DNA of 64,000 bases, taken from assembly GCA_019058295.1 (NCBI GenBank), contig JAHPZI010000023.1, forward strand, positions 1 through 64,000. Direction: 5' to 3'. Shown here one piece after another: positions 17,983-28,003 of this stretch. A model generated the notes under the pieces. It was given only the letters and a program-made list of their open reading frames with translations. It made no database searches and was not told the DNA's origin. Numbering within the stretch: the first letter of the stretch is position 1; each line of letters starts with the position of its first letter. The DNA comes from Promethearchaeota archaeon. GTDB taxonomy: Archaea > Asgardarchaeota > Lokiarchaeia > Sigyniarchaeales > SOKP01. The position numbers were made by a program, and so were the translations under genes.

Positions 17983-18915
17983 ATGAATCAGCAACAGCGA
18001 GAATTTTTAAGATTTAATAGAAATGAAGAAAATTTAGATATACTAAAAACAAACGAATGCTGTGAAAAGCCGTTAATTCAAATTAGAGATGGAAACCGCT
18101 TATGTTTAAATTGTGGGATGATTTATCAAAAAGAATTTGTGGGAAATGAGAGACGGGCTTACACAGTGGAAGAAATCCAGAGTCGTAAACGAACAGAACC
18201 CCGCTGGCGTGATTTTGGACCTCGTACAATGCTCCCAAACACCAAAACTGATAGCAAGGGTAAATCAATAGGTGCAAAAGAGCAAGCTCTTTTTTCACGT
18301 TTATCAAAAATTCAAAATTCATTAATATCAAGCATTGAAAGAAATTTTTGGGAAGCAAAACCAAAATTAAAAATGTTATGTTCCAAATTAAATATCCCTG
18401 AATATATATCAGATAGTGCATGGAAGATTTATTCAATTGTGGCTAAAAAGAAGTTAACTATGGGGAGATCGATTAATGGATTCATCTCCGGTGCCTTATA
18501 TGCGGCGATTCGAGTTCATGATTTCCCGCGTTTGCTCGACGAGGTTTGCGAAGCATCGTTAACACCTAGAAGAACAGTTCACAGAAGTCTCGCTATGATT
18601 ATTCGGGAGATATTACCGGAATTAAATTTAAAATACCAACCAATTACAGCTGAATGTTTGGTTTTTCGTTTTGGCAATGAATTAGAATTACCGATGCAAA
18701 TTCAAAAATGCGCTATTAATATGTTAATACAAGCATCACAAAACGGTTTAAAGAGAACAGGAAAGGATCCGAAAGGTCTTGCAGCAGCATGTATTTATAT
18801 TGCTGCTAAAGATGGGGCTATGCGTAAAACCCAATCACGAGTTGCGGAAATTGCAAAAATCACTGAAGTTACTCTTCGAAGTCGAGCTAAACAAATCAGA
18901 AATAAATTATATTAA
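17983..18915 (+). CDS. tfb: Transcription initiation factor IIB (TFB) paralog
   Basis: Zn ribbon CC..CLNCG, two cyclin folds (GRSI..ALYAA; GKDPKGLAAACIY) and KTQ..AKITEVTLRSR. Confidence 0.93.
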   Translation: MNQQQREFLRFNRNEENLDILKTNECCEKPLIQIRDGNRLCLNCGMIYQKEFVGNERRAYTVEEIQSRKRTEPRWRDFGPRTMLPNTKTDSKGKSIGAKEQALFSRLSKIQNSLISSIERNFWEAKPKLKMLCSKLNIPEYISDSAWKIYSIVAKKKLTMGRSINGFISGALYAAIRVHDFPRLLDEVCEASLTPRRTVHRSLAMIIREILPELNLKYQPITAECLVFRFGNELELPMQIQKCAINMLIQASQNGLKRTGKDPKGLAAACIYIAAKDGAMRKTQSRVAEIAKITEVTLRSRAKQIRNKLY

Positions 18916-18965
18916 AAAAATTTTATAAATTTTTAATTATCAAATAATTAGGGTTAAGGGTAGAT

Positions 18966-19529
18966 TTAATCTCCTTTTTCTTTTTTTTCAAGTTCTAAAT
19001 TCCAATGTAGACCTAGAGCACCAAATACTAATCCAACCATTAAATAATAACAAACAACCCCCGTAAAAAATAGCCAAATAACTATGACATAAAAAGGAGC
19101 TAAATTTGCGCTAAAAATAATGTGTTGGAATGTTTTTAATCTCCCACCAATTGTAATTTCAGTTCTACCTAAAAACGTTATATATGCTAATTTAATGAAG
19201 GAAAAAATTAAAATTAACATACCAAACATAAGCATGCTTTTAGCTCTACTTTTATTATCAATTTTACTTGAAGAAAGTTTTAGAAGAAGTAATCCAATTA
19301 TAAAAAAGATACAAATTGAGCTAACTAGAAAGATAAATATTAAAGTAGCCGAGAGTGGAACGTAAGTTGAGTTAAATATAAATTCTTGAAAAAGCATTTT
19401 CTTGCCATATAAATTAATTTGTGTAGATAATAGTAGAAATATATTAAATAGCTCGATAGATGAGAGAACGATAAAAAGCAAGCCAAATACTATAAGAACT
19501 TTTTTGTAATGTTTTTCTTCATATACCAA
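18966..19529 (-). CDS. Hypothetical 4-TM membrane protein
   Basis: Four hydrophobic segments; TTG start. Confidence 0.7.
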   Translation of the reverse strand: MVYEEKHYKKVLIVFGLLFIVLSSIELFNIFLLLSTQINLYGKKMLFQEFIFNSTYVPLSATLIFIFLVSSICIFFIIGLLLLKLSSSKIDNKSRAKSMLMFGMLILIFSFIKLAYITFLGRTEITIGGRLKTFQHIIFSANLAPFYVIVIWLFFTGVVCYYLMVGLVFGALGLHWNLELEKKEKGD

Positions 19530-19685
19530 TTGGGGCCACTATTTTTATTTTCTAAAATTAAAAATATAATTAATAATTATAATTTGATTGATTTCTTATA
19601 AAAATTCTTATACAACTTTTACTTCTAATGCATTTGAAATTAGAATAATTTATGATCAAAAAATTTTTATAAATGAGCTATTTCA

Positions 19686-20645
19686 TTGAAAAAACTGAGA
19701 CAAGATAATTCAGATAACGAATGCCCTCATAACGATATTAAGAGGGAGGGTGGATTTCTTGTTTGCAAAGATTGTGGCTTAATCTTAGAAGCTGATATTA
19801 CATTTGAAACGTCCATTAACGGCAAATCCGCAGAATCTCAACAGGTTTACGAAAGAAACATTAGGATAAGAGACTCGAAAGCATTACAAGATCCAAACAT
19901 TAAACAGAAATACGATAAAATTCAAACGCTCGAAAAATGGTACAGAGACTACGAAACAAGTTTTACAGAACAACGAAAAACGATTGAATTATTGAAAAAT
20001 TATGGTTTTAATATAAATCAAGTAAAACTTCAAGCAATAAAGAAAAGATATCTCAAATATAATAGAAACCATAGAGCCACATATCAAAACATGGTCATTA
20101 TCTTCCTTGCAATCATATGGCTAGAAATTAAAGAAACTACTAATGTTCGTATTGAAAGATATATAGAAGTATGTAATGAGTTAGGACACAAAATTAATAA
20201 AAAAATGCTTACTAATGCAATGCTGAAAGTAAAGAAAACTGAGAAGATGTGGAAAGAATTAAAGTCTCAAACCGATATTGAAAAAGAAATAAAGGAAAAG
20301 ATCAAAATCTTATTTCAAAAGGATTTAAATAGTATTCCTTACGATAAAGTTGAGGATTTCATTTCTCACGAATCAGAGTTCGAGAAATTGAAGATTGAAA
20401 TGCAAATATTAGCGGATGACTTACTTAAGAAAATACCGTATAAAGATTTAAAAAACTTAAATTATAAAGCATTCACAGCAGGATTGATTTATTATATAGG
20501 ACAAACTTTAGAAAAAGGGAATAGGAAAATTTTTACTCAAAGTCTTATTGAAGAATCAACGAGTTTTTCAAGTACAACAATAAGAAAAAAATATAACATT
20601 TTAAAGGATATTTTAGGAATTCCACATAGTTTAGCAGTAAATTAA
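19686..20645 (+). CDS. Divergent TFB-like protein (Zn ribbon plus cyclin-like repeats)
   Basis: CPH..LVCKDCGLI ribbon; C-terminal FTAGLIY..FTQSLIEESTSFSSTTIRKKY resembles the TFB C-terminal HTH. Confidence 0.7.
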   Translation: MKKLRQDNSDNECPHNDIKREGGFLVCKDCGLILEADITFETSINGKSAESQQVYERNIRIRDSKALQDPNIKQKYDKIQTLEKWYRDYETSFTEQRKTIELLKNYGFNINQVKLQAIKKRYLKYNRNHRATYQNMVIIFLAIIWLEIKETTNVRIERYIEVCNELGHKINKKMLTNAMLKVKKTEKMWKELKSQTDIEKEIKEKIKILFQKDLNSIPYDKVEDFISHESEFEKLKIEMQILADDLLKKIPYKDLKNLNYKAFTAGLIYYIGQTLEKGNRKIFTQSLIEESTSFSSTTIRKKYNILKDILGIPHSLAVN

Positions 20646-20755: not shown

Positions 20756-23644
20756 ATGTCTATAGCAGAAATTACTGATAGAAATTATTATAATAAAACC
20801 ATAGATGAGTTAATAAAAGAATTTAATTCTGATCCCGAGAATGGACTGAAAACTTTAGAATTAGAGAGTCGTTTTAATGAATTTGGATATAATGAACTTC
20901 CTAAAATTAAAAAATCGATTTGGAAAATATATTTAGCACCGATTTTTAACTTCTTAATTGTTATTTTGCTTATTACAGGGATTGTTGTTATTATTCTAGG
21001 GAGTCCAGAGGACACAATTATTACGTTTACAGTGGTGGGCATGAATTCATGTACAGCAATTATTCAATCCTATCGGGGACAAAAAGCTCTCGAGTCCCTA
21101 AGGCAAATCTCCGCATTAAAGGCAATTGTAATACGTGATGGAAATAAATTTGGACAAGAAATACAAACAAGAGAACTAGTACCTGGAGATATTGTACTAT
21201 TAAATCAAGGAACAAAAATTCCTGCTGATGGTCGAATATTAGAATCTATGAATTTAACCATAGACGAAGCTGCTTTAACAGGTGAAAGTGAACCTGAAGA
21301 GAAAAATAACTTGATAATTGAAAAAGAAAATATTCCTATTCAAGATCAATCCAATATGGTTTTCATGGGTACATATGTCCATACAGGAAGAGCTAAAATT
21401 TTAATTACTGGAACAGGGATCAATACTGAAATTGGAAAAATCTCTATCCAATTAAATGAGATGGGTTCCATTGAAGAAATACCTTTAACTCATAAATTAA
21501 ATAAATTAGGTTATATCTTAGGAACAGTGGTAATAATTAATCTTATAGTACTTATCGTTTATAAATTTACAACATTAAATCTTTGGACCGAAATATTTAA
21601 AGGAAATTTTAAAAATGAAAATATTGGTGAAGCGCTTGTGAGCTCAATATTAAGGGCAATGAATATTATGCCTATTAATTTACCTCTATTAACAACTTTA
21701 GTTCTCGTTACAGGAGTACTTAATATGGCACAAAATGGAGTAATAATTAAAAATTTATCAGCAATAGAATCTCTCGGGCGTGTTTCTGTCGTTTGCTCGG
21801 ATAAAACTGGAACAATAACTAAAAATGAAATGACGGTTGAAAAATTTTGGATAAATGAAGAAGAATACGAAGTATCTGGTTCTGGTTATGATGCTAAAGG
21901 TGAAATTCAAAAAGATGGAAAAGAAATTAATTTAAAGGATAATTCAACATTTCAAAGATTTATTAATTCAATAGTCATAAATAACAACTCAAAACTTATA
22001 TTTGAAAACGTTAAAGTTAAGGTTGGAGAAACTATGGAAAAGGCAGTACGAAGAGCTTTAGGTTCTCCTACAGAAGCTGCATTATTAGTATTGGCTGAAA
22101 AAGCTGGTTATAATCTTACTGAAACTAAGAATAAATTTGAGATTTTGCAAGAATATTCGTTTAGTTCAGAATTTAAACGAATGACTACAGTTTGCACCAT
22201 ATTTGAAGAGAAATTCGAAATTTATGCTTTTTCAAAAGGTGCACCTGAAAGGATTTTAGATATATCTAATAAAATTGAAATAAATGGCAAGGAGAAATCT
22301 TTTAAAAATAAACAAGAGATATTAAATAAAATTAATAATCGAGCCAATCAAGGCTTTAGAACTTTAGCTATTGCTTATAGAAAATTAAAAGAATTTAATA
22401 ATTCTAAAAGAGAAGATATTGAGAGGAATCTAATATTTTTGGGTTTTGTGTCAATAATGGATCCCCCTCGGATTGGAGTTAAAAAATCTGTTGAAGATTA
22501 CCAATCTGCCGACATTAAAGTTATAATGATTACTGGCGATCACCCAGCAACTGCCCAAACTATTGCATCTGAGATGGGAATATATAAAGAAGGAGATTTT
22601 GTGGTTGAAGGTAGTGAAATTAAAAATCTTAGCAACGATAAGTTTAATAAAGTTTCTGTATTTGCTCGGGTAGCTCCTGCTGATAAAGAGATTATTATTG
22701 AAAAATACCAAGCCCAAGATAGAGTTGTAGCAATGACGGGTGATGGAATCAATGATTCTCTTGCCTTGAAAATGGCAAATGCGGGTATAGCAATGGGAAT
22801 CACTGGAACTGATGTTGCTAAAGAAACGGCAGACATGGTAATTTCAGATGATGATTTCACTTCAATAGAGCAAGGTGTAAAAATCGGAAGAGGACTTTTT
22901 TCTAAAATCAGAACGATAATCTATTTCTTTATATGCTTAAATATAATGGAAGCCGTAATATTCTTTGGGTATGAATTCATACCGACTTTCGTATTATTTA
23001 AGTCAGAATGGCAACATATTTATATCTTTGGTGTAGTTCATTCACTTCCATCCTTAGCTTTAGTCATTGATAAGCATCCGAAAAACATAATGAAAGAACC
23101 TCCAAAAGACGAAGAAGAATTGTTAAATAAAAATATGTGGGCAATGTTATTACTGCAAGCGTTCTTAATGGGATTGGGGTTAATATTGGCTATTCAATTA
23201 ACATTAGGGGGTTTTCTGGGGGGCTTAAATGAGTGGAATATCAATCCAAATTTAAGCTATATTCCCAAGAATACTTCAAATGATGAATTAGTTGATATGA
23301 AAGCCCGAACGATGTTTATGACTACATTATATATAGTAGAAACATTTTTTATCTGGACCTTTCGCCGGCCTAATCAATCCGTTATTGAAAGCATTAAAGA
23401 TGAAGATATGGGAAAGCCTTTACTTGTTATTTGTTTGATTACATTATCTCTACATGTTTTAATAATATGTTTTTCTTATCAGTTTAATAATGCTGTAAAT
23501 AACACACTAGGATTGAATTTGCAACTAAATTTTATGTTTCTGAGTGCACTGGATTGGTTAATTTGCATTTTATTTGCTCTACCTGGCTTAATTGGAATAG
23601 AAATTATCAAATATTTTGCAAGAAAAAAGAAAATAGTTTTCTAA
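20756..23644 (+). CDS. P-type ATPase, P2-like, atypical ion-binding residues
   Basis: TGES, DKTGT, KGAPE, DPPR, MITGD and TGDGIND; TM4 reads MPINLP. Confidence 0.93.
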   Translation: MSIAEITDRNYYNKTIDELIKEFNSDPENGLKTLELESRFNEFGYNELPKIKKSIWKIYLAPIFNFLIVILLITGIVVIILGSPEDTIITFTVVGMNSCTAIIQSYRGQKALESLRQISALKAIVIRDGNKFGQEIQTRELVPGDIVLLNQGTKIPADGRILESMNLTIDEAALTGESEPEEKNNLIIEKENIPIQDQSNMVFMGTYVHTGRAKILITGTGINTEIGKISIQLNEMGSIEEIPLTHKLNKLGYILGTVVIINLIVLIVYKFTTLNLWTEIFKGNFKNENIGEALVSSILRAMNIMPINLPLLTTLVLVTGVLNMAQNGVIIKNLSAIESLGRVSVVCSDKTGTITKNEMTVEKFWINEEEYEVSGSGYDAKGEIQKDGKEINLKDNSTFQRFINSIVINNNSKLIFENVKVKVGETMEKAVRRALGSPTEAALLVLAEKAGYNLTETKNKFEILQEYSFSSEFKRMTTVCTIFEEKFEIYAFSKGAPERILDISNKIEINGKEKSFKNKQEILNKINNRANQGFRTLAIAYRKLKEFNNSKREDIERNLIFLGFVSIMDPPRIGVKKSVEDYQSADIKVIMITGDHPATAQTIASEMGIYKEGDFVVEGSEIKNLSNDKFNKVSVFARVAPADKEIIIEKYQAQDRVVAMTGDGINDSLALKMANAGIAMGITGTDVAKETADMVISDDDFTSIEQGVKIGRGLFSKIRTIIYFFICLNIMEAVIFFGYEFIPTFVLFKSEWQHIYIFGVVHSLPSLALVIDKHPKNIMKEPPKDEEELLNKNMWAMLLLQAFLMGLGLILAIQLTLGGFLGGLNEWNINPNLSYIPKNTSNDELVDMKARTMFMTTLYIVETFFIWTFRRPNQSVIESIKDEDMGKPLLVICLITLSLHVLIICFSYQFNNAVNNTLGLNLQLNFMFLSALDWLICILFALPGLIGIEIIKYFARKKKIVF

Positions 23645-23769
23645 AATTTTATTTCTGCAATCTTTTTGTTGAAAAATAATAATTAAAAATAATAAATATT
23701 ATAGTCTTATTATAAAAAATTATTATTTACTAAAATTTAAACAATAATCAAAATTACTTTTATTTATTA

Positions 23770-26673
23770 ATGACAGTTGCGGAAGATACACAAGTAGAAA
23801 TAAATTATTATAATTTAAAACTAGAGGAAATCTACAAAAATCTTCAAACTGATCCAGATAAGGGATTAAGTGAAGAAGAAGCTGTAAGAAGATTAGAGCA
23901 GTATGGCCCTAATGAAATCCCAAGAGTTTCTAAAGGTTTTATTAAGATTTATCTAGCCCCTCTCTTCAATTGGCTCATTGTTATTTATCTTATAGGCGCA
24001 TTGATATTATTCTTAGCTTGGTTCTTTGGAGAAGGGGGCAATATGACTTTTATCGCTCTTACACTTGGCATCGTTTTTCTTAATTGTTTAATAGCTATTT
24101 TTCAACAATATCGTGCCACTAAAAAATTGAAAGCTCTACGAGAACTTACTGCACCTACATCAACGGTTATTAGAAATGGACAGAAAAAAGATATCCCAAC
24201 GAAAGAAATTGTAAGAGGAGATTTAATAGCTCTAAATCAAGGTGATAAAATTCCTGCTGATGGAAGAATAATTAATTCAACCATTCTTGAAGTTAACGAG
24301 GCGGCTCTAACTGGTGAAAGTGAATCTGTACTAAAGCTTCAAGAGGGTGAAGCATTGGACGGGGCAAAAATACCCATAGGCGACCGAAAAAATATGGTTT
24401 ATTATGGTACATACGTAGCAATGGGGAATGGAACCGCAATAGTAGTAGAAACGGGTGGAAATACAGAAATTGGTAAAATTTCTCAAGGATTAGAAGAAGC
24501 TGGAACTAGTGAGATACCAATACGTAAAAAAATGAATAATTTTGGAAAATGGTTAGGATTATTAGTTATGTTATTTTGGTTTATAATTTTAATGATTATA
24601 TGGATTGGAAGTGGTTTTAAAAAGCTAGAAATAGTCAAGAGTCTTAATTCGGCAATGGATATAATGCCCATTAATATTCCGTTATTGACAACCATTGTTC
24701 TATTGACTGGTGTTTTAGCAATGGCTCACCATGGAGTCATTGTTCGAAATCTTGCATCAGTTGACAGTTTAGGACGAGTAAGCGTAGTTTGCAGCGATAA
24801 AACAGGGACCTTAACCAAGAATCAAATGGCAATTGAATATGTATGGACAAATAATTCTATATTTAAAGTAACTGGAAGTGGTTATGATCCTGAAGGTGAT
24901 ATTTTTTTTATGGATGATCCTAAAAATCTCGTAATAGTAACCCGCATTGATGATTTTCCGGAATTGAAACAATTATTAACTTCAGGCTTTTTAAATAATA
25001 ATTCTGCTCTTGTAAAAAATGAAATTGAAGTTTCTGGTAAAATTATTCCAAAATATAGTGTAATCGGTTCTCCTACAGAAGGAGCATTAATGGTCTTATT
25101 CCAAAAGGGGATGGGTGATTATATTTTGGAAAGTTACCAACAATTAAAAGAATTCCCTTTTGATTCCTCCATTAAAAGAATGAGTAAAGTTTTTCAGAAA
25201 GATTCAGAATATTATACATTTACTAAAGGAGCAAGTGAAATATTAATTGAACTCTGCCCAAAAATCTTGATTAATAATCGTGAAGAAGATTTTACTCCTG
25301 AATTGAAAGAGAAAGTATCTCTTAAAATAGATAGATTTGCCAATCAAGGATATAGAATATTAAGTTTATGCTATAAAAAAATGAATGAAATTCCTCTAGA
25401 CACAGACGAAAGCAGACAACTATGCGAATCAAATCTGGTATATCTTGGTTTTGTAACTATCTTGGATCCACCTCGAAGAGGCGTAAAAGAATCAGTAGAG
25501 CAGTGTCAAAACGCTGGAGTTGATGTGGTGATGATCACTGGCGATTCTCCTACAACGGCAAAAGCTATTGCTTCACAAATATCAATTGTAAAGGATGAAA
25601 ACGATTATACTATTGAAGGTTATCAAATAAAAGATATTGACTCTAATGAAGATTTTAATAATATTAAAGTTTTTGCTCGAGTAGCTCCTGCGGACAAACA
25701 AATTATAGTAGAGAAATATCAAAGAGATAAAAGAGTTGTTGCGATGACTGGCGATGGTGTCAATGATGCTTTAGCATTAAATATGGCTGATGCGGGAGTT
25801 GCAATGGGTATACAAGGTACAGATGTTGCTAAAGAAGCCTCGGACATGGTTATATCTGATGATTCTTTCAATTCGATAGTTAAAGGGATACATCAAGGGA
25901 GAGGGATTTTTGCTAAAATTAGAGCTGTTGTTTTCTTCTATATATGTATTAATTTATTTGAAGGAATAGTACAATTTATTTTAGCTGTAATTTTAGATTT
26001 ACCATATTTTTTGAATCAGGAATTCTATTGGCAATGGATCTTTTTATCAATAACGCTTCATACATTTCCAGGTTTACTTTTAACTTTTGATACTATATCT
26101 AATGATGTAATGAATGAAAAACCAAAAGATACTGAAGAAATATTGTCAAAGAACACAATTTATTTAATGCTTACGTACGGAGCTTTATTATCAATCTGTA
26201 TGCTTATAATCTATTTTTCAGTTATGATTGGATTATTTCCAGTAACTTATAGTAATACTCATTTTGGATTCCTTAACGAAGGATATCTTTATAGTTCAGA
26301 GACTATGGATGAATTAACGCCAGATATAAATTTACGTATAGCAAAAGCTCTCACTATGCTTATGGTTACATTATTTCTCTGTGAATCTTTTCTAATTCTA
26401 CAAATTAGGCGCCCAAATAAATCATTAATAAAAAGTCTTAGGGAAGATTGGAGTAATAGAATTTTATACTTGTTAGGGTTATTATTCGGCATATTTTTAA
26501 TTATAATGTATGTCCCAGGAGTTCAAATTGGGCTAGCAACGATTGGTATCAACTTTATGTTTATGTATCTTACACTTTTAGACTGGATCGTATGTTTTGG
26601 AGTGTCATTGATATGCATACTTGGTTTTGAACTTATTAAAGCTAATGCCCGAAAGAGAGGAATTAATTTCTAA
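23770..26673 (+). CDS. P-type ATPase, P2-like, atypical ion-binding residues (paralog)
   Basis: TGES, DKTGT, KGASE, DPPR and TGDGVND; TM4 reads MPINIP. Confidence 0.93.
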   Translation: MTVAEDTQVEINYYNLKLEEIYKNLQTDPDKGLSEEEAVRRLEQYGPNEIPRVSKGFIKIYLAPLFNWLIVIYLIGALILFLAWFFGEGGNMTFIALTLGIVFLNCLIAIFQQYRATKKLKALRELTAPTSTVIRNGQKKDIPTKEIVRGDLIALNQGDKIPADGRIINSTILEVNEAALTGESESVLKLQEGEALDGAKIPIGDRKNMVYYGTYVAMGNGTAIVVETGGNTEIGKISQGLEEAGTSEIPIRKKMNNFGKWLGLLVMLFWFIILMIIWIGSGFKKLEIVKSLNSAMDIMPINIPLLTTIVLLTGVLAMAHHGVIVRNLASVDSLGRVSVVCSDKTGTLTKNQMAIEYVWTNNSIFKVTGSGYDPEGDIFFMDDPKNLVIVTRIDDFPELKQLLTSGFLNNNSALVKNEIEVSGKIIPKYSVIGSPTEGALMVLFQKGMGDYILESYQQLKEFPFDSSIKRMSKVFQKDSEYYTFTKGASEILIELCPKILINNREEDFTPELKEKVSLKIDRFANQGYRILSLCYKKMNEIPLDTDESRQLCESNLVYLGFVTILDPPRRGVKESVEQCQNAGVDVVMITGDSPTTAKAIASQISIVKDENDYTIEGYQIKDIDSNEDFNNIKVFARVAPADKQIIVEKYQRDKRVVAMTGDGVNDALALNMADAGVAMGIQGTDVAKEASDMVISDDSFNSIVKGIHQGRGIFAKIRAVVFFYICINLFEGIVQFILAVILDLPYFLNQEFYWQWIFLSITLHTFPGLLLTFDTISNDVMNEKPKDTEEILSKNTIYLMLTYGALLSICMLIIYFSVMIGLFPVTYSNTHFGFLNEGYLYSSETMDELTPDINLRIAKALTMLMVTLFLCESFLILQIRRPNKSLIKSLREDWSNRILYLLGLLFGIFLIIMYVPGVQIGLATIGINFMFMYLTLLDWIVCFGVSLICILGFELIKANARKRGINF

Positions 26674-26707: not shown

Positions 26708-28003
26708 CTATTTTCGCATTTTTCGATAGTCCACTATTGGAAGCTTATTAATATTATAAGGGAGAGTTGCATTATCAGGGATCGGATCGATATAACAATG
26801 TCGGAATTTCGAATGCTGCATCCTGCAGAATGGAGTTCGATGATTGAAGGCAGGATGACGTACCATTCTCATCCAGATCTTCTTTAAAGGTTCAGTACGA
26901 ATGTTTCCAAAAGAAAGAGGTGTAAAATCGCAGGGAGCAACATCTCCATATGCAGAAACATAATACTGAATATTTGCTGCTAGACATCCCATCCCTCCGA
27001 GATATGATTGCATAGAGGTCTCAATCCACGATTGATAAGAAAAAGGAGGTATTTTCTTCTCTTTGAATATTTCAGCACAATAATTACGGATTTCTTCACG
27101 CTGCTCTTGGGTAAGTATCTCACTTGTATCTTTCAAATTATATGCTGGAGGAACACCATCAAAAAGCATCAAATTCTTAGTACCAAGTTTTTTTGCTAGT
27201 TTATACATTTTTTTATACATTCCATTTATAGTGGCAGAACGTGTCGCGTAAGAAGAGAGCCCAACAAATACTCCTTTTGATTTCATTTTCTGAAGACCAT
27301 TCACTGCAGTCTCAAAAATACCCGGCATACCTCTTAATCTATTATGCTCCTCAGGAGATGGACTATCAATACTTACAAATATAGAATAGAGACCTGCATC
27401 TACTAATTTTTCTACATTTTCATCTGTGAGTAATAATCCATTTGTAAACATAATGGGTAAAGCCTTACGTTTATTCACATAAGATATAAGTTCAAAAATA
27501 TCCTCCCGTAATAAGGGTTCTCCCCCTGTAAAAGCGAGAATAGTTACACCGAGTTTTTGGCTTTCATCAATAACTCTTTTTGCCTCTTCTGTAGTAAGTT
27601 CTGGTATATCCTTTCTCAAATGACTTGATGCACTACAATGAACACATTTACACTGACATCTATAAGTTACCGCAAAAGTCATCGCAACAGGAAAAGGATG
27701 ACCTATTAAATTGGATTTTACCAAATTTTTGAGAGCTCGCAGCATAGGAAAACTTCCAATTGGAGGGGCATATGTGTTTGTAACTATCTTTCCTTTCCAT
27801 CGCCCAAGAGTAGAATAATTTTTATAAAATTTACTCTGAAAATAAATCATTGTGAATAACCGGAATAAGCGAAATTTATCAAGAAGTGGGTTAAGAAGGC
27901 CTGTACCTATTAATTCATCATCTTCTAATCTCTTAAAGCTTATGAGCTTTCTGCCGAAAAGTTTCCAAAAAATTTGCTCTCGTTCCATTGATAGATATCC
28001 CAT
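26708..28003 (-). CDS. Radical SAM protein with SPASM/twitch domain
   Basis: CQCKCVHC, FTGGEPLL and C-terminal GCLA..PCDF..FGNI. Confidence 0.9.
   Translation of the reverse strand: MGYLSMEREQIFWKLFGRKLISFKRLEDDELIGTGLLNPLLDKFRLFRLFTMIYFQSKFYKNYSTLGRWKGKIVTNTYAPPIGSFPMLRALKNLVKSNLIGHPFPVAMTFAVTYRCQCKCVHCSASSHLRKDIPELTTEEAKRVIDESQKLGVTILAFTGGEPLLREDIFELISYVNKRKALPIMFTNGLLLTDENVEKLVDAGLYSIFVSIDSPSPEEHNRLRGMPGIFETAVNGLQKMKSKGVFVGLSSYATRSATINGMYKKMYKLAKKLGTKNLMLFDGVPPAYNLKDTSEILTQEQREEIRNYCAEIFKEKKIPPFSYQSWIETSMQSYLGGMGCLAANIQYYVSAYGDVAPCDFTPLSFGNIRTEPLKKIWMRMVRHPAFNHRTPFCRMQHSKFRHCYIDPIPDNATLPYNINKLPIVDYRKMRK

Follow-up and report, generated by a model that had tools for sequence, protein, structure and literature searches.

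A Tandem Pair of Asgard Archaeal P2-Type ATPases With a Remodeled Transport Site and a Probable Substrate Other Than Calcium

Introduction

Which ion does a P-type pump move when its catalytic machinery is intact and the acidic residues of its calcium site have been exchanged for isoleucine and histidine? This question is raised by two adjacent genes, here termed ATPase A and ATPase B, in a 64,000-nucleotide (nt) stretch of contig JAHPZI010000023.1 from a Promethearchaeota archaeon (assembly GCA_019058295.1); this whole stretch is referred to below as the window. Both genes encode intact, paralogous P2-type ATPases, and the evidence assembled here makes it probable that they are P2A-derived pumps whose substrate is a small cation, not Ca2+ but a transition metal or H+. 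In a published transporter survey, Asgard orthologues appear only as a putative Ca2+-ATPase, TC 3.A.3.2.21 (PMC7997004), and the database label of generic cation or Ca2+ ATPase has fed claims of eukaryote-like Ca2+ handling in Asgard archaea (PMC7997004). An original prediction, made from the letters of this stretch, had proposed an undescribed subfamily, probably not of Ca2+ pumps, with possible affinity to lipid flippases (P4) or proton pumps (P3A).

Results

Two Intact Pumps With an Altered Transport Site

ATPase A (962 aa; 20756-23644, + strand) and ATPase B (967 aa; 23770-26673, + strand), each defined by its open reading frame (ORF) and translation, share an orientation and are 43% identical from end to end; A is the A-type member of the P-x-N/TM6-His clade of P2-type ATPases described below (TM, transmembrane helix), and B is its B-type paralogue. 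The same five Pfam domains are recognized in both pumps: Cation_ATPase_N, E1-E2_ATPase, Cation_ATPase, Hydrolase, and Cation_ATPase_C. The TGES, DKTGT, TGD, and GDGxND motifs are all intact. In A, TGES lies at 21278-21289 (+), the phosphorylation motif DKTGT (D349) at 21800-21814 (+), and GDGIND at 22739-22756 (+); in B, the corresponding positions are 24310-24321 (+) for TGES, 24796-24810 (+) for DKTGT (D343), and 25750-25767 (+) for GDGVND. The TM4 proline precedes the phosphorylated aspartate by 43 residues, the same distance as from P308 to D351 in SERCA.

The helices that line the transport site read differently. TM4 of A is MNIMPINLP (P306, I307, N308; 21659-21685, +), which aligns to AVAAIPEGLP of SERCA, and TM4 of B is MDIMPINIP (D297, P300, I301, N302; 24655-24681, +). 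In TM6, VVHSLP of A (23033-23050, +) and TLHTFP of B (26053-26070, +) place a histidine, His762 and His764 respectively, at the position of SERCA D800, which for B is also that of Na,K-ATPase D808. TM5 carries NIME in A (22940-22951, +), the counterpart of NLFE in B (25951-25962, +), where N728 and E731 correspond to SERCA N768 and E771; TM8 carries IVETF in A (23333-23347, +), the counterpart of LCESF in B (26377-26391, +), where E872 corresponds to SERCA E908. The original prediction had described these features, and its description holds: the PINL/PINI form of TM4 and the TM6 histidine were confirmed to the base, the retention of TM5 NxxE and the TM8 glutamate by alignment to SERCA1a, and the intact catalytic motifs within a P2A-like layout by the motifs themselves, the Pfam domains, and the ranking of P2A models given below.

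Residue equivalences were taken from a profile of 48 family sequences aligned to SERCA1a. P308 remains proline, E309 has become isoleucine, G310 asparagine, and D800 histidine; the counterparts of N768, E771, and E908 are retained, and N796 (now glycine or serine) and T799 are lost. None of the side-chain ligands of SERCA site II persists in the A/B clade, and the conserved TM5 asparagine and glutamate, TM8 glutamate, TM6 histidine, and TM4 asparagine sit where SERCA site I and the TM4 break are lined. Across the 48 sequences, P300 and E731 (B numbering) are invariant, and N302, N728, H764, and E872 are each at least 90% conserved. D800 bridges both Ca2+ sites in SERCA, and an invariant TM6 aspartate is generally regarded as common to P2 and P3 pumps. 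The aligned site is thus predicted to be incapable of binding Ca2+ in the SERCA manner, and the earlier expectation that these proteins probably do not pump Ca2+ is, for the site itself, sustained.

The same alterations recur throughout the family. When 30 clade representatives, each from a different 50%-identity cluster, were compared with 58 canonical relatives, column 302 (B numbering; SERCA G310) was Asn in 90% of the former and Gly in 88% of the latter, and column 764 (SERCA D800) was His in 97% and Asp in 95%, respectively. A TM4 of the P-[ILVF]-N-[IL]-P type was present, together with intact catalytic motifs, in all of the approximately 240 close A/B homologues inspected, and the TM6 histidine was found at nearly every locus with a readable TM6. 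Judged from these alignments, the changed site is a trait of the family and not a chance event. Clade-wide, the residue that follows the TM4 proline is I, L, V, F, or W, and the next asparagine is fixed. With one position variable and the other fixed, the alignment identifies the asparagine, and not the isoleucine that had suggested a flippase, as the fixed novelty of TM4.

Placement Within the P-Type Superfamily

The only NCBIfam model passed by the two pumps is the generic P-type model TIGR01494 (266 and 282 bits; cut-off 62.3). Beneath their own cut-offs, the highest-ranking specific models are those of the P2A group, both PMR1-type (TIGR01522, 432/482 bits; cut-off 798.3) and SERCA-type (TIGR01116, 420/422 bits; cut-off 703.4), followed in order by P2D, P2C, P2B, P3A (TIGR01647, 317/337 bits; cut-off 615.5), P3B, P5 (263/236 bits; cut-off 618), and P4 (TIGR01652, 124.5 and 103.8 bits; cut-off 431.25). 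The P1B models scored 164-229 bits, also under their cut-offs. Among solved sequences, LMCA1 (733 bits), SERCA (711), and SPCA1 (703) score highest with the family profile.

Structural comparison agrees with this ranking. In the AlphaFold2 model of B (mean predicted local distance difference test score, pLDDT, 82.5; predicted TM-score, pTM, 0.75), TM4 is unwound at residues 299-301, and the top 50 Foldseek matches are all SERCA, SPCA, H,K-, or Na,K-ATPases (P2A/P2C), with a best TM-score of 0.75. The features that define a P2-type pump are found together in B: Cation_ATPase_N and Cation_ATPase_C, ten helices, and a modeled fold like that of SERCA and Na,K-ATPase.

Two trees were computed, one of 89 rows under LG+G4 and one of 61 rows under LG+C20, to which Asgard P3B-like, PEEL-type, P2C-like, and P3A-like pumps were added; eukaryotic P2A-D, P4, and P5 references were left out of both, and it is by their motifs, model scores, and fold matches that A and B are set apart from P4 and P5. 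The clade is monophyletic in each, with support of 100 and a stem length of 0.33-0.59 (0.59 under LG+C20), and lies within the prokaryotic PE-G-L P2 radiation, with the P3A-like, P3B-like, and PEEL-type pumps outside. The A-type sequences form the sister group of the B-types plus the single-copy Thor, Odin, and Heimdall types, from which it follows that the A/B duplication is old.

These results divide the original prediction. A distinct subfamily with a P2A-like layout is upheld by the fully supported clade and by the P2A model and fold matches, and no description of the clade was found in the searchable literature (which does not cover most subscription journals), in keeping with the view that the subfamily was undescribed. 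The proposed P4 or P3A affinity, in contrast, is not supported: the clade falls in the P2 radiation, P4 (104-124 bits) and P3A (317-337) score below P2A (420-482), the A-domain motif is TGES, the residue after the TM4 proline varies, and the TM6 aspartate of P3A pumps is missing. Given the P2 placement and the P2A/P2C fold neighbors, a bearing on the origin of lipid flippases is unsupported on present evidence.

Distribution Among Asgard Archaea

Orthologues of A (67-82% identity) and of B (67-92%) occur in many Asgard metagenome-assembled genomes (MAGs), drawn from Promethearchaeota (Loki) and from Thor-, Hod-, Hermod-, Heimdall-, and Odinarchaeota; that the window comes from an Asgard-like genome was a correct surmise. 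Searching 1.84 billion cluster representatives gave approximately 45 with this site type (30 of them full-length), and then canonical PE-G-L pumps. Among 151 Asgard species genomes, the P-x-N...DKTGT signature is present in 86 (51 of the 72 high-quality genomes; 11 of the 27 family codes) and the PE-x-L...DKTGT signature in 140. Both kinds of pump are encoded in 83 of the 86 genomes that bear P-x-N, and this coexistence argues for an additional function, as opposed to a calcium pump that has drifted.

Within the family of the source genome, the pumps are found in 22 of 25 genomes, almost always as the A-B tandem, and both are missing in three; the tandem was seen in one other family. No P-x-N pump was found in genomes G099, G104, and G132 of the source genome's family, which are 94-99% complete. 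Because the pair is missing there and present in the other 22, it is dispensable, and it seems to have been lost as a unit. In a sister family (f2; genomes G089 and G094) there are 4-5 clade copies, including a distant P-F-N-F-P type, which constitutes a local expansion. Canonical pumps can also stand in tandem: two of the PEGL[IV]VV type, of 946 and 945 aa, lie approximately 3.2 kb apart at G147:C10:895400-904900 (L160), and canonical tandem pairs also occur at G040:C25, G129:C239, and G104:C135 (source genome's family).

When 185,579 species genomes were scanned, the motif used required a methionine before the proline, and the scan therefore under-samples the family; among the matches listed, almost all are from Asgards, including the cultured Lokiarchaeum ossiferum, and a few are Bathyarchaeia, Nitrososphaeria, and Methanomethylicus contigs with P-I-N/His pumps. 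The clade is also present in Promethearchaeum-labeled MAGs. The full-length sequences from Nitrososphaeria (L023, L040) and Bathyarchaeia (L082) nest in the Atabey/Asgardarchaeum/Heimdall subclade, a position that suggests either transfer out of the Asgards or binning errors; sequences L101 (Bathyarchaeota) and L037 (Methanomethylicus, ORF too short) were outside the tree. On contig NJBP01000013.1 (L032), assigned to 'Candidatus Aerophobetes bacterium Ae_b3b', a B-type pump groups among the Loki B-types in the tree, next to a Promethearchaeia sequence, and this is probably a mis-binned Asgard contig.

Source Genome and Gene Neighborhood

The source genome is 3.2 Mb in size and 79% complete. 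Its other P-type pumps are two CPC-type P1B ATPases and one P3A-like pump, the latter with a TM4 of SIPVALP, a retained TM6 aspartate (LND), and a position outside the clade in the tree; a PE-G-L pump was not found in this 79%-complete genome. Both CPC-type P1B ATPases (C28:139727-143470, L003; C28:26587-31101, L001) have Cys-rich C-terminal extensions that end with a common H-x-G-[KR]-[PD]-M...LVCW segment, and one of them carries two CGM...YYFC repeats (TRASH/YHS-like by eye).

Spacers of 110 and 125 nt precede A and B; they are AT-rich and contain TATA-like boxes, and oligo-T runs follow A. From these signals, A and B may be transcribed separately. The gene immediately upstream of A (19686-20645, +) is noted as genomic context only: it encodes a soluble TFB-like protein of 319 aa with a weak TFIIB-type zinc ribbon (Pfam Zn_Ribbon_TF, 19.7 bits, under the cut-off), and a gene of 313-323 aa occupies the equivalent position in four other MAGs. 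The region 17983-20645 comprises a canonical TFB (310 aa, two TFIIB repeats), then a divergently oriented 187-aa multi-pass membrane protein that belongs to no family, and then the 319-aa protein; this trio lies upstream of the pump pair in several related MAGs. Convergent with B is a radical SAM protein with a SPASM domain (26708-28003, - strand), where related MAGs have a GNAT acetyltransferase. The gene order AFOR, TFB, 187-aa membrane protein, TFB-like protein, A, B, GNAT is confined to close relatives, and no conserved accessory subunit or partner gene was found beside the pumps, the loci of the other subclades included.

Discussion

A Candidate Pump for a Small Cation Other Than Calcium

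As pumps for a small non-Ca2+ cation, A and B would run the ordinary phospho-aspartate (E1/E2) cycle. Ca2+ site II would have been erased by the exchange of E309 for a hydrophobic residue, the loss of N796 and T799, and the exchange of D800 for histidine, and a single cation site would have been rebuilt from the TM5 asparagine and glutamate, the TM8 glutamate, the TM6 histidine, and the new TM4 asparagine beside the helix break. A small cation would then be exported from the cytoplasm, both the direction and the substrate being putative, and protons would probably return on the Glu/His cluster.

Several observations converge on such a pump. A cation fits the two conserved, buried carboxylates better than a lipid does. 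The histidine ligand argues against Ca2+ or Mg2+ and points to a proton relay or to a divalent metal of borderline softness; among P-type ATPases, a transport-site histidine is otherwise typical of transition-metal pumps, as in the CPH motif of P1B-3 and HEGxT of P1B-4. The coexistence with canonical pumps, in turn, points to a distinct role. For the ion itself, a divalent transition metal (Mn, Fe, Co, Ni, or Zn) may be proposed tentatively, and H+ or another monovalent cation is a nearly as likely substrate. The B-type TM4 is typified by Asp297, where A has Asn303, so the paralogues are probably non-redundant, and A and B would probably differ in ion, affinity, or stoichiometry. A more ambitious proposal, which we offer as speculation, is that the clade is a new P2 subfamily whose substrate is new to the P2 scaffold, that the lead candidate is a transition metal at a Glu-Glu-His-Asn site, and that the Lokiarchaeia-type A-B tandem is a functional pair, either of two specificities or as a heteromer.

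Some of the evidence weighs against this interpretation. Support is weak at the deep nodes that surround the clade, and what is described as derived from P2A could therefore be sister to it; the clade would be derived from, or sister to, prokaryotic P2A, and the data go no further. No genomic context points to any ion: the genes beside the pumps change from subclade to subclade and include neither a metal regulator nor a chaperone. Two CPC-type P1B pumps and one P3A-like pump are already encoded in the source genome, and so a metal or proton role is not obviously vacant. The geometry of the Glu/Glu/His/Asn cluster, moreover, is a prediction from the alignment to SERCA.

Alternative Readings

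The alternative that survives best, although we judge it unlikely, is that A and B are still Ca2+ (or Ca2+/Mn2+) pumps, which would bind the ion only in a site-I-like pocket of TM5 Asn/Glu and TM8 Glu and in which the histidine would be tolerated or act as a pH-dependent gate. The counterparts of N768, E771, and E908 needed for such a pocket are retained, the best matches are P2A models and P2A structures, and Asgard orthologues are called putative Ca2+-ATPases by databases and by the transporter survey (PMC7997004). This reading must, however, accommodate the loss of T799 and E309, the near-complete exchange of aspartate for histidine in the D800 column relative to canonical relatives (95% Asp against 97% His), the failure to reach any P2A equivalog cut-off, and the retention of a canonical PE-x-L pump in 83 of 86 genomes. 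Furthermore, LMCA1-like single-site prokaryotic Ca2+ pumps use site II, and it is site II that has been erased.

Still less probable is the movement of a lipid or bulky organic cation along a TM2/4/6 groove, in the manner of P4 flippases or P5B polyamine pumps, which would make the clade relevant to flippase origins. The Asgard host lineage and the loss of the canonical acidic ligands of TM4 and TM6 are compatible with it, and the hydrophobic residue after the TM4 proline recalls the P-I-S-L of P4 pumps, but that residue is I, L, V, F, or W, with no fixed isoleucine, and the two buried glutamates and the asparagine are conserved as in an ion pump. The A-domain motif is TGES and not DGET, scores are far under the P4 (104-124 bits against 431) and P5 (236-263 against 618) cut-offs, the Foldseek top 50 includes no P4 or P5 structure, and the clade is nested in P2. 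Nor is a conserved partner gene found beside the pumps; CDC50 (PF03381) gave no match at E<=1 in the 79%-complete source genome, a search that had no positive control, given that the 14 control genomes, likewise with no match, are all prokaryotes. That the proteins are non-transporting relics or regulators, which would move no substrate whether or not they cycle, might be read from the loss of canonical ligands at three positions but is highly implausible, since each paralogue is kept at 67-92% identity in many genomes, all catalytic motifs are kept, and the conserved replacement residues imply selection on a working site.

With a small cation other than Ca2+ as the favored substrate, the clade is of interest as a large, old group of pumps in which the TM6 aspartate has been replaced by histidine and the classic TM4 glutamate erased, with everything needed to cycle kept. 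Over half of the sampled Asgard genomes, that of one cultured species included, encode such a pump. Knowing the ion would correct the annotation, reveal a new way in which a textbook pump family achieves selectivity, and shed light on ion homeostasis in the archaea most closely related to eukaryotes; the significance would rise if the ion were one that P2 pumps are not known to carry.

Comparison With Known P-Type Pumps

The resemblance to P1B-3 and P1B-4 pumps (CPH; SPC and HEGxT) is one of analogy only, and consists of a histidine or His-Glu pair in the transport site. P1B pumps have eight helices, lack Cation_ATPase_N and Cation_ATPase_C, and belong to a lineage unrelated to A and B, from which the SPC of TM4 and the HEGxT of TM6 of P1B-4 are absent.

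With the P4 flippases (ATP8A1/Drs2 with CDC50), A and B share a hydrophobic residue after the TM4 proline and the absence of an acidic TM4 ligand. They differ in the use of TGES instead of DGET, in a TM4 of P-[ILVFW]-N-[ILF] instead of P-I-S-L, in their TM5 and TM8 glutamates, in a P4 model score that is a quarter of the cut-off, and in phylogenetic position. The P3A H+-ATPases (AHA2, Pma1, and the archaeal MJ1226-type) similarly offer a P-I at the TM4 break, as in the plant P-I-A-M, and the protonatable cluster of A and B could carry H+; the essential TM6 aspartate of the P3A pumps (AHA2 D684) is, however, histidine in A and B, and the TIGR01647 cut-off is missed.

The closest known systems are the prokaryotic and eukaryotic P2A pumps: Listeria LMCA1 (PDB 6zhf/9euq), SERCA1a/2b, and SPCA1/PMR1. 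With these, A and B have in common the ten helices, Cation_ATPase_N and Cation_ATPase_C, the TGES, DKTGT, TGD, and GDGxND motifs, a TM4 proline 43 residues before the phosphorylated aspartate, the TM5 N..E pair, the best sequence and fold matches, and the position in the tree. The A/B clade departs from them in the exchange of E309 for I, L, V, F, or W, of G310 for asparagine, and of D800 for histidine, in the loss of N796 and T799, and in scores under the equivalog cut-offs (TIGR01116, TIGR01522). It differs from LMCA1 in particular by its retained TM8 glutamate, and canonical PE-x-L pumps are encoded alongside it in the same genomes.

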